DNA of 54,871 nt from NCBI GenBank assembly GCA_027002995.1, contig JALWZB010000087.1, positions 1-54,871 of the forward strand, given 5' to 3'. Below are positions 14,407-16,117 of this stretch, piece by piece (position 1 is the stretch's first letter; each line of letters starts with the position of its first letter). The translations under genes were made by a program, and so were the position numbers. The stretch comes from Desulfurococcales archaeon (lineage in GTDB: Archaea; Thermoproteota; Thermoprotei_A; Sulfolobales; NBVN01). A model generated the notes under the pieces. The model saw nothing but the letters and a program-made list of their open reading frames with translations, made no database searches and was not told where the DNA came from.

Positions 14407-14607
14407 AGAACCCGCAAACCACACGCAACCCCCCCACTCCTAGCTAAGAACGAAGTAAAGGTTTTGGTTCACCTAACCGATTAATCGCTAAATCCGCATT
14501 ACTAGATACTTATTCCCTAACCTAATCAAAGTATAAAACATATGCTCTTCTCATCGTGAGGTTAAGAAGTGGTGGGGGGCACCCACACACTGGTAGCGGG
14601 GGGTGGA

Positions 14608-14640
14608 CTCTCACGGGCTGGCTTCCAATCACCAGCCCGA
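14608..14640 (-). other. tRNA intron 3 at position 59/60 in the T-loop (33 nt)
   Basis: Textbook hBHBh' motif. The T-stem GGUGG/CCACC is the outer helix. The central helix is UUCA/UGAG (4 bp). The bulges are AA|U and AG|U. The inner helix is 8 bp, CGGGCUGG/CCAGCCCG. Confidence 0.8.
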
Positions 14641-14660
14641 TTTGAACCACCGACCTCGGG

Positions 14661-14680
14661 CTCGACCCCCTTATAGGGGC
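14661..14680 (-). other. tRNA intron 2 at position 39/40 (20 nt)
   Basis: Compact BHB. Outer helix CGG (14689-14687)/CCG (14659-14657). Central helix AGAC/GUCG (3 bp plus a mismatch). Bulges AC|G and AG|C. Hairpin CCCCU-AUA-AGGGG. Confidence 0.7.
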
Positions 14681-14682
14681 GT

Positions 14683-16045
14683 GTCTCCGAGGCGGGCGGC
14701 CCGGCCATCTTGTAACTCGTATAGTCAGCTTATATACTTTCTGTGAATTCTATTAATTCGGAAACTAATTCTGCAACTTTAACTAAGCACCTAAAACTAA
14801 TTATAAATAAACTTTACGATTTTGTCAATCACAGCAACTTTCTCTAAATTACGAGAGCGTGTGAGAATGTCTATTGCTTCCCTTAATGAATCCCTGCACT
14901 TTTCTGTGATTTTAACCATCACCCTCTTATGGCTCACTATAGGTTTGGGCTTCAATTCGCTGTGCTCGCCAAGCCAGAGAGTTCTTACCCTATCAAAGGC
15001 TTCACGTTGCAGGTATAATACCAATACCTTACTCCTCCGAGGCTCCTTTCTTCGCTGAATATACGCTGAGCTTGCAGCTGTTATCAAACGCTGAAGTTCT
15101 CCCACCGTAAATCCGCATTCATAGTTCTTAGCCCAGTTAAGCAAGTATCTCTGTAGCCGCGCCCTTCTGATAGGATGGAATACTAATTCTAAACAGTTTC
15201 TAGCGAAATCCATTTTCAGGAACCTGAAGGAGACTTCATAATTCGGTCTCCCACGATATGTTCCAAGTACGATATATCCTCTTTGTTCGGCGTGTGTCAG
15301 GATGGAGTAAATCGTCCTCCCCTTTACGCTCCCTCCTTTAGCCACAGATACTGCAAGGTACTTTCCCTCCTTACCCACATATCCGTCTCCATCAATTAGA
15401 CCCGCAAGTAAGGCAGAGATGTAGGTACTGTCAAGACCATGTAGGTCGAACTGCCGGGACATCAGTACGTGAAGTAATTGAAGCAGGCTATCACGTTGTT
15501 TACGAAAAGTACCTTTGCTTAGGACGCTGATGCTAAAGTATCTTTTCTTCCCTCTGCTTTGAGGATAGATTCTCACTCTCAAGTAGGCGCGTAAGGGAAG
15601 GAAGGTCATTATCACCGCTATAGAGGTCTCCTTCGTGACACCCCTGAAAGTTATTGTTTTATATCCGCCGATCAGTGCAGAGAGATTCCCATCACATAAG
15701 ATTAGGCCAATGCTCTTCCATAGATACCTAGCCATAAGGTGAGGGCTGAGTTTATGATCATCATCATAATAAAACAGAGTTAGAGCATTATTTTTCTGAA
15801 TGGACTCAAGGATATCACCAATCAGTTCTTTATCAAGGTTCCGAAGTCTAACGACCCTCTCCATACTTCCTAACGCTCCCAGTCTTATAGGTAGCTTAAT
15901 AAAGTGAGTGTCTTTACTGATGACTATGTTCGGTTTACAATTAATATTGTGCGCTCTGACTAAATGTCTCAAACTTAAGCAACTTGAGAGCCAGGAGAAC
16001 GAAGTTAAAGGATGCGTGGGTGGTGCCGGGCCGCCCGGGGCCTCT
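14683..16045 (-). other. tRNA intron 1 at canonical position 37/38 (1,363 nt), carrying the homing endonuclease ORF
   Basis: The BHB has three helices. The anticodon stem is CGGGG/CCCCG. The central helix pairs CUCA (16051-16048) with GGAG (14688-14685): 3 bp plus one A.G mismatch. The bulges are UA|A and AC|A. The inner helix is GAGG (16044-16041)/CCUC (14692-14689). A CCC bulge follows, then a 13-bp all-GC helix, 16037-16025 with 14705-14693. Confidence 0.8.
14797..15972 (-). CDS. LAGLIDADG homing endonuclease, two-motif monomeric type, intron-encoded
   Basis: 391 aa from TTG, or 355 aa from the ATG at 15864. The first motif is KSIGLILCDGNL. The second is ISALLAGLIDGDGYVGK, about 100 aa downstream. 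The ORF is AT-rich with T-ending codons, unlike the GC-rich tRNA exons and the neighbouring genes. Confidence 0.85.
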   Translation of the reverse strand: MRHLVRAHNINCKPNIVISKDTHFIKLPIRLGALGSMERVVRLRNLDKELIGDILESIQKNNALTLFYYDDDHKLSPHLMARYLWKSIGLILCDGNLSALIGGYKTITFRGVTKETSIAVIMTFLPLRAYLRVRIYPQSRGKKRYFSISVLSKGTFRKQRDSLLQLLHVLMSRQFDLHGLDSTYISALLAGLIDGDGYVGKEGKYLAVSVAKGGSVKGRTIYSILTHAEQRGYIVLGTYRGRPNYEVSFRFLKMDFARNCLELVFHPIRRARLQRYLLNWAKNYECGFTVGELQRLITAASSAYIQRRKEPRRSKVLVLYLQREAFDRVRTLWLGEHSELKPKPIVSHKRVMVKITEKCRDSLREAIDILTRSRNLEKVAVIDKIVKFIYN

Positions 16046-16117
16046 TATGAGCCCCGCGGGCTGCCTGGCTACCCCACCCCGCTGCTTTGGCCCCCCGTTC
16101 TTTGTGGGGTTGTTTGG

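Follow-up and report, generated by a model that had tools for sequence, protein, structure and literature searches.

Overlapping splice motifs around a 2-nt exon point to ordered intron removal in an archaeal initiator tRNA gene

The contig JALWZB010000087.1 of an uncultured Desulfurococcales archaeon of hot-spring type (assembly GCA_027002995.1), analysed over its full length of 54,871 nt and referred to as the window in the following, contains on its minus strand (16083-14591) a gene for tRNA-iMet(CAU), the initiator methionine tRNA, which is interrupted by three introns and gives a transcript of 1493 nt. Introns 1 and 2 of this gene are separated by an exon of 2 nt, and the two bulge-helix-bulge (BHB) motifs by which these introns are predicted to be excised draw on the same stretch of RNA with different partners. 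Judged from the sequence and from the folding model, the productive order of splicing is almost certainly intron 2 first and then intron 1. The full account, in which the motif of intron 2 forms first, intron 2 is released, the motif of intron 1 forms and intron 1 is released, is given a probability of about 0.75. All features of the gene described below lie on the minus strand, and their coordinates are those of the window.

Gene structure and mature tRNA

Exon 1 (16046..16083) covers positions 1-37 of the tRNA, begins with AGCGGGG and ends with GGGGCUCAUA. It is followed by intron 1 at 37/38 (14683..16045), which has a length of 1363 nt, holds an open reading frame (ORF) and provides with its 3′ end the strand common to both splice motifs. 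The 2-nt exon A38-C39 (14681..14682) separates it from intron 2 at 39/40 (14661..14680), whose 20 nt include the inner hairpin CCCC(U)AUA(A)GGGG, the central-helix strand GUCG (14666-63) and the AG of the 3′ bulge. Exon 3 (14641..14660) supplies tRNA positions 40-59. Within its C40-G46 segment (14654..14660), C40 is the third base of the 3′ bulge of intron 2, C41-G46 pairs with CCUCGG in the motif of intron 2 and C40-G43 forms the 3′ strand of the anticodon stem in the mature tRNA. Intron 3 at 59/60 (14608..14640) is 33 nt long and is followed by exon 4 (14591..14607), which comprises positions 60-76 with an encoded CCA.

Joining of the exons yields a 77-nt tRNA-Met(CAU) that is accepted by ARAGORN as tRNA-Met(cat) and that shows the pair A1:U72 and three G-C pairs, G29-31:C39-41, at the base of the anticodon stem. 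The spliced tRNA was compared with the uninterrupted gene of a genome of the same family (L014), and the differences are confined to the D-loop. An earlier note on this DNA had proposed A38-C39 (14682-14681) as a 2-nt exon between introns 1 and 2, and both its coordinates and its bases hold: the dinucleotide is needed to restore CUCAUAACCCCG, as present in L014, and it is required because the anticodon stem without it loses C39.

In the unspliced locus no tRNA was detected by ARAGORN, and none by Rfam at the gathering score or at E values up to 1; this is due to the introns interrupting the gene and not to the gene being absent. No second initiator-type tRNA gene was found in the 155-contig genome, which is 97.8% complete. 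With respect to a self-splicing origin, no match to a group I or group II intron was obtained with Rfam at the gathering score or at E values up to 1.

Two other ways of dividing the locus were considered and rejected. If intron 1, AC and intron 2 are taken as one intron, the product lacks C39 and so the G31-C39 pair, which is present in L014. A 1-nt exon C with A38 taken from 16045 was rejected as well, since both bulges set the cuts at 16046/16045 and 14683/14682.

Applied to the whole genome (G000), ARAGORN reported 25 tRNA genes and zero tRNA-Met of any kind, despite the completeness of the assembly. Many other tRNA genes of this genome are probably hidden by introns or splits.

Two splice motifs sharing one strand

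In the BHB geometry used, two 3-nt bulges on opposite strands are separated by a helix of 4 bp and flanked by further helices, and each bulge is cut behind its second base. All three introns fit this geometry, including the position of every cut. In the motif of intron 2, designated X, the outer helix is formed by 6 bp between CCUCGG (14692-87) and CCGAGG (14659-54), and the central helix pairs AGAC (14686-83) with GUCG (14666-63) by 3 bp and an A.G mismatch. Its bulges are A-C-G (14682-80) and A-G-C (14662-60), and its inner helix is CCCC/GGGG. In the motif of intron 1, designated Y, the central helix pairs C32-U33-C34(-A35) with GGAG (14688-85), also by 3 bp and an A.G mismatch, the bulges are U36-A37-A (16047-45) and A-C-A (14684-82), and the inner helix joins GAGGC (16044-40) to GCCUC (14693-89). 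The anticodon stem serves as outer helix of Y and is split by intron 2 between C39 and C40. On the 5′ side of Y (16040..16051), C32-A35 (16051-48), the bulge (16047-45) and GAGGC (16044-40) follow one another, and the same layout is seen in relatives.

The shared strand (14683..14693) thus contributes GCCUC, GGAG and the AC of the bulge to Y, and CCUCGG and AGAC to X, whose 5′ strand (14692-14683) lies entirely within the 3′-terminal part of intron 1. X and Y are mutually exclusive because the bases 14692-14683 are used by both with different partners. Overlap and mutual exclusion of the two motifs had been recognized in the earlier note and apply to these common bases. The bases named there for the 5′ strand of X, CGG-AGAC-AC (14689-14681), are right, with an outer helix of 6 bp that is longer than the CGG given, and the use of GGAG-ACA (14688-14682) as central helix and bulge of Y is correct in bases and coordinates.

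Other elements of the transcript do not take part in this competition. The 5′ strand of a 12-bp G+C-rich closing stem of intron 1 (16025..16036) pairs with 14694-14705; this stem reaches a pair probability of 0.95-0.99 in all folds and is compatible with X and Y alike. Intron 3 possesses an independent canonical BHB with the 4-bp central helix UUCA/UGAG, the T-stem as outer helix and CGGGCUGG/CCAGCCCG as inner helix, which forms in all folds.

A strict BHB-like geometry was found at 24 sites in the window compared with 20.6 in shuffles, so that it is as common as expected by chance, while the chance of such a motif at one fixed site and with one intron length is about 8e-6. Since BHB-like geometry matches the frequency in shuffles, the motif match alone was set aside as evidence, and the fixed position, the restoration of the tRNA and the conservation were used instead.

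Folding of the precursor and of the intron-2-less form

Folding was computed with a nearest-neighbour energy model, which takes account neither of protein binding and tRNA tertiary structure nor of the true growth temperature. Both the full 1493-nt transcript and mini-precursors formed the outer helix of X, with probabilities of about 1.0 (37°C) and 0.68 (80°C). In the same folds, with intron 2 present, the central helix of Y and the anticodon stem stayed at or below 0.02 (at or below 0.01 for the central helix of Y). When the exact motifs were forced in the presence of intron 2, the energy of Y exceeded that of X at 37, 60 and 80°C by 14.1, 9.7 and 5.7 kcal/mol, respectively, and deletion of intron 2 reduced this gap to 9.0, 5.5 and 2.4 kcal/mol at these temperatures.

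With introns 2 and 3 deleted, the probability at 80°C increased from 0.02 to 0.69 for the anticodon stem and from 0.21 to 0.71 for the inner helix of Y. A similar shift was observed in arm constructs of 32 distinct relatives folded at 80°C, in which the removal of intron 2 raised the central helix of Y in 32 of 32 and the anticodon stem in 31 of 32; the closing of a split stem is by itself expected to produce part of this rise. In the energy model, removal of intron 2 makes Y possible and likelier, not dominant. The earlier note had suggested folding the precursor and the intron-2-less form as a check, and the comparison bore out that X is favoured in the precursor and that the balance shifts to Y, without Y becoming dominant afterwards. 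At 37°C the residual CCUCGG/CCGAGG hairpin is dominant even without intron 2, which was attributed to the model being limited at a temperature that is not physiological and was not counted against the pathway.

The reverse intermediate, an RNA without intron 1 that keeps intron 2, behaves differently in the model: the 3′ splice site of intron 2 is spanned by a pairing of GGGCUC with GAG|CCC, and no BHB is left. Inspection of the sequence of exon 1 gave no 4-nt partner for the intron-2 strand GUCG.

Conservation and covariation in relatives

For the comparison, 40 relatives were searched at the DNA level, and the 325 genomes of the order were scanned with a sequence pattern. The comparative set was gathered with a pattern that fixes part of the shared strand, and the free columns are intron 2 and the first base of the outer helix only. 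The same arrangement was found in 29 of the 325 genomes, distributed over five families, with 0 matches for a reversed control pattern. In the public genome collection, all 33 matches are metagenome-assembled genomes (MAGs) labelled Desulfurococcales, Acidilobaceae or Sulfolobales.

Across 37 distinct genes, intron 1 varies in length from 20 to 1366 nt, lies at the same site with the same ends and is never missing where intron 2 is present; that it always ends with CUCGG(A/G)GA(C/U) holds by construction, this being the search pattern. Versions of intron 1 with 20-22 nt occur, for example, in L048 and L007. Intron 2 has a length of 12-31 nt in these genes, and in 33 of them the central helix of X is made up of three or more pairs. 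The exon bases CAUA, which would replace the intron-1 strand, pair with the central strand of intron 2 at no more than one of four positions in all 37.

In an alignment of 32 distinct sequences, X is 90.4% paired, compared with 29-65% for slid partners. Six pairs of X change on both sides, and the covariation score exceeds that of all 500 shuffles. The outer helix of X (CCUCGG with C41-G46) is 99% paired in these sequences, C-G, U-G and U-A all occur as the fourth central pair but C-A does not, and wherever the first central base is G it stands opposite C or U. Moreover, the A.G mismatch found in the intron-2 central helix of the window gene is replaced in relatives by G-C, G-U or A-U.

If intron 2 would depend on intron 1, genes with intron 2 alone are expected to be absent. 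A search for intron 2 without intron 1, by the pattern CTCATAAC followed by 8-40 nt and CCCGAGGTCGGTGG, gave matches in 0 of the 325 genomes. The reverse state exists, with intron 1 and without intron 2, in L019/G008, L011 and L016, the latter two having the 37/38 intron only. As read from these genomes, the missing intron-2-alone state is support, not proof, for the dependence.

In the gene of G008 (L019 / L086; G008:C98:14343-14364), intron 1 has the same CCTCGGAGAC end and intron 2 is lacking; a CCUCGG/CCGAGG hairpin is still possible there. In this gene, intron 2 either had not yet been acquired or was lost while intron 1 stayed.

Proposed order of splicing and alternatives

From the gene structure, the motif overlap, the conservation, the covariation and the folding preference we infer the following order in vivo. 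The ten bases at the 3′ end of intron 1 (CCUCGGAGAC) would, in the primary transcript, pair with C41-G46 and with GUC of intron 2, forming X and hiding Y. EndA would then excise intron 2, and the 6-bp CCUCGG/CCGAGG helix may serve as a tether that keeps the ends together for ligation, while the 2-nt exon AC would presumably never be detached from the upstream RNA. Ligation of C39 to C40 would then allow the anticodon stem to form, and the same ten bases would re-pair, CUC/GAG with the anticodon loop and GAGGC/GCCUC with the 5′ end of intron 1, to give Y. The ORF-bearing intron 1 would be removed last, and the T-loop intron 3 would be spliced independently. If intron 1 were removed first, splicing would come to a dead end, as intron 2 would then be deprived of the 5′ half of its motif. 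Nor would the AC dinucleotide ever be freed on both sides, given that X and Y are mutually exclusive.

Two EndA paralogues are encoded in the genome (PF01974 matches of 93.1 and 40.4 bits; the genes lie at G000:C155:104862-105092 and C151:1268-1501), which are consistent with the catalytic and structural subunits of a two-subunit (alpha-beta)2-type (heterotetrameric) splicing endonuclease. Endonucleases of this type have been reported to cut relaxed motifs without outer helix and to have a broad substrate range (PMC6379350, PMC4033280). This bears on the reason for which the earlier note had placed intron 2 first, namely that intron 1 needs a contiguous C39-G43 strand. Intron 2 does split the outer helix of Y, but this is the weaker reason, since the (alpha-beta)2 type is credited with cutting without an outer helix. 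The stronger reason, only implied in that note, is that the central and outer helices of X draw on the final 10 nt of intron 1.

Several points weigh against an order of intron 2 before intron 1. The conservation of the columns of the shared strand is by construction, due to the search pattern. The related genomes are not independent samples, and many of them are incomplete. Both central helices, that of X and that of Y, carry an A.G mismatch in this gene, and the residual CCUCGG/CCGAGG hairpin is still favoured over the exact Y after removal of intron 2. In addition, cutting of relaxed motifs might lead to a fraction of the transcripts being cut early at intron 1.

One alternative is that there is no fixed order and that a broad-specificity endonuclease cuts whichever motif forms, including a relaxed bulge-helix-loop, with both orders leading to the mature tRNA. 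The two-paralogue endonuclease is of a type reported to cut relaxed motifs (PMC6379350, PMC4033280), and at 80°C the model populates X as well as the inner helix of Y. Furthermore, intron 2 of many relatives has only 12-15 nt with an inner helix of 1-2 bp, so that relaxed forms are already accepted there. However, an RNA from which intron 1 has been removed offers no 4-nt partner in exon 1 to the central strand of intron 2, and the model buries the 3′ splice site of intron 2 in a continuous helix. Moreover, not one of the 325 genomes retains intron 2 alone, and the central helix of Y hardly forms (0.01 at most) while intron 2 is present. A splicing without fixed order was judged to be rather unlikely.

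A regulatory gate, in which the switch from X to Y would allow the cell or the intron-encoded endonuclease to adjust initiator tRNA supply or release of the ORF-bearing intron, is very improbable. That this is the sole initiator tRNA gene and that the balance of X and Y is temperature-sensitive in the model are circumstantial points in its favour. The interlock is, however, also found with an ORF-less intron 1 of 20-46 nt and so is not tied to the endonuclease gene; Rfam gave no ligand- or protein-binding element, and the geometry alone fully explains an ordered pathway. The gating of initiator tRNA maturation that the earlier note had raised is unsupported.

Least credible of all is a misparsed or decayed gene, that is a 2-nt exon as artefact in a pseudogene or a self-splicing (group I) intron: ARAGORN and Rfam are silent on the unspliced locus, but the joined exons make a perfect initiator tRNA near-identical to the uninterrupted orthologue, the genome has no other initiator gene, the same exon layout is kept across five families, no group I or II match appears even at E values up to 1, and versions of intron 1 that have the same ends but a length of 20 nt leave no room for a ribozyme.

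Excision of intron 2 before intron 1 is accordingly the preferred order. It is backed by the borrowed strand, by the folding and by the absence of intron 2 alone from 325 genomes, whereas the word obligatory, which the earlier note had used for it, goes beyond this evidence.

Intron-encoded ORFs

The ORF of intron 1 (14797..15972; first ATG at 15864) has a LLAGLIDGDGYV motif and a degenerate first motif. Compared with the Pfam family LAGLIDADG_3 (PF14528) it scored 15.6 bits, which is below the cut-off of 22.5 bits, and a sequence search of PDB yielded no relative. Homologues with 27-50% identity are present in the 37/38 intron of initiator tRNA genes of other families (L004, L023, L028, L030, L033, L049, L055, L058, L062, L069 and L076). 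The homologue of L004, which is 39% identical to the ORF of intron 1, passes the LAGLIDADG_3 cut-off with 23.6 bits. The sequence comparison weakly suggests an ORF of LAGLIDADG type, the Pfam score being weak but the motif and clear homologues in other families being present. The ORF-bearing 37/38 intron would be old or mobile, because homologues sit at the same site in other families. No description of an ORF of this kind in an archaeal tRNA intron was found in the literature library searched.

In two sister species, the 59/60 intron has a length of about 780 nt (L002:821-1477, minus strand, and the matching part of L003) and encodes a clear LAGLIDADG_3 protein with 52 bits. A second endonuclease gene in the same tRNA thus shows a presence/absence difference, the 59/60 intron of the window being 33 nt long.

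A putative leader/trailer helix and further gene arrangements

The leader of the gene contains the G+C-rich 7-mer GGGGGGC (-13 to -7; 16096-16090, minus strand), the reverse complement of which, GCCCCCC, occurs 4-20 nt past the 3′ end of the tRNA. In the window, the trailer complement lies within 14580-14570 on the minus strand. Among the loci compared (L002-L079), such a 7-mer match of leader and trailer was found in 34 of the 36 distinct interrupted iMet genes, and in 32 of these 34 the trailer complement is followed by ACCA or GCCA. Three covarying types of the helix were observed, GGGGGGC/GCCCCCC, GGGAGGC/GCCTCCC and GGCGGGG/CCCCGCC. The uninterrupted gene L014 is without this helix, and among the other tRNAs of the genome any 7-nt match between leader and trailer was seen in 1 of 25. 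From its sequence, the pairing looks like a second acceptor-like helix that would clamp the whole precursor.

Initiator tRNA genes with four introns (30/31, 37/38, 39/40 and 59/60) and five exons were found at L012, L015, L017 and L020; according to a review of 2014, the maximum is three introns (PMC4033280). A further intron near 64/65 is present in L029, L048, L049 and L050. In L006 (G004, a genome of the same genus), L008 (G007), L009 (G014) and L013 (G024), the initiator tRNA gene appears to be split between positions 30 and 31 into a 5′ and a 3′ half. The halves are located on opposite strands about 1 kb apart, and complementary tails flank the junction, for example CCCACCGTCCC with GGGACGGTGGG.

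Implications

The interlock of the two motifs could act as an evolutionary lock, an idea that is put forward tentatively and with somewhat less than even odds. As X is built from the 3′ end of intron 1, a clean loss of intron 1 would leave intron 2 unspliceable, which would be lethal in the sole initiator tRNA gene. If this holds, intron 1 may shed its endonuclease gene and shrink and would not vanish while intron 2 is present. Such a lock would account for the persistence of the 37/38 intron in five families at lengths of 20 to 1366 nt, always keeping its last ten bases, and for intron 2 never being found alone, and the homing-endonuclease site would stay open to re-invasion. Linked to this, mutual exclusion of X and Y would make the 2-nt exon survivable, because it would never be cut free on both sides.

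The interlock does not reveal a new mechanism. It would extend stepwise tRNA splicing to uncultured Desulfurococcales-type archaea and to the essential initiator tRNA, and it offers a compact natural set of substrates for the study of competing motifs, heterotetrameric endonuclease and ligase, with intron 1 of 20-1366 nt, genes with and without intron 2, and split genes. It also carries a warning for annotation: with ARAGORN and Rfam missing the gene, genomes of this group seem to be without an initiator tRNA.

Comparison with known systems

Nested pre-tRNAs of Crenarchaeota with multiple introns are reportedly the subject of Sugahara et al. 2007 (RNA 13:671), Sugahara et al. 2008 (MBE 25:2709) and Tocchini-Valentini et al. 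2009 (PNAS 106:20246). Like these, the precursor described here has two or three BHB introns per pre-tRNA with one motif interrupted by another intron, and would need stepwise cutting and ligation by a heterotetramer-type enzyme. Unlike the nested pre-tRNAs of Thermoproteales isolates, it belongs to uncultured MAGs of Desulfurococcales/Acidilobaceae type, its introns lie 2 nt apart, and the intron predicted to be removed last can carry a LAGLIDADG-type ORF. A further difference is that the dependence appears to be two-way, intron 2 needing intron 1 to be present and intron 1 needing intron 2 to be gone. For the borrowed strand, the comparison with the crenarchaeal examples of 2007-2009 follows what the abstract of the PNAS article by Tocchini-Valentini et al. 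2009 is said to state.

Processing in a reproducible order has also been described for multi-intron and permuted pre-tRNAs of the red alga Cyanidioschyzon merolae, in which the motif of the anticodon arm is processed last, as determined by reverse transcription PCR (RT-PCR) of intermediates (Soma et al. 2013, PMC3728597). According to the works cited in that article, ordered, nested tRNA introns have already been published for Crenarchaeota (PMC3728597). In the alga as in the present gene, several BHB motifs occur in one pre-tRNA; the order was shown by RT-PCR there and is deduced here. The motifs of the alga fold independently and their order follows motif stability, whereas the order proposed here would be set by structure, because the motifs share nucleotides.

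BHB introns of archaeal rRNA genes are known to carry LAGLIDADG homing endonuclease genes (PMC4496867, PMC6125680). Intron 1 resembles these introns in its long closing stem, its internal ORF of putative LAGLIDADG type and the variation in presence and absence of the ORF among relatives, and it differs from them in that the host is a tRNA gene, with the canonical 37/38 site. Stepwise splicing of nested tRNA introns is thus known. Particular to the present case are an exon of 2 nt in an initiator tRNA gene, an outer intron that bears an ORF and a dependence that appears to be two-way.

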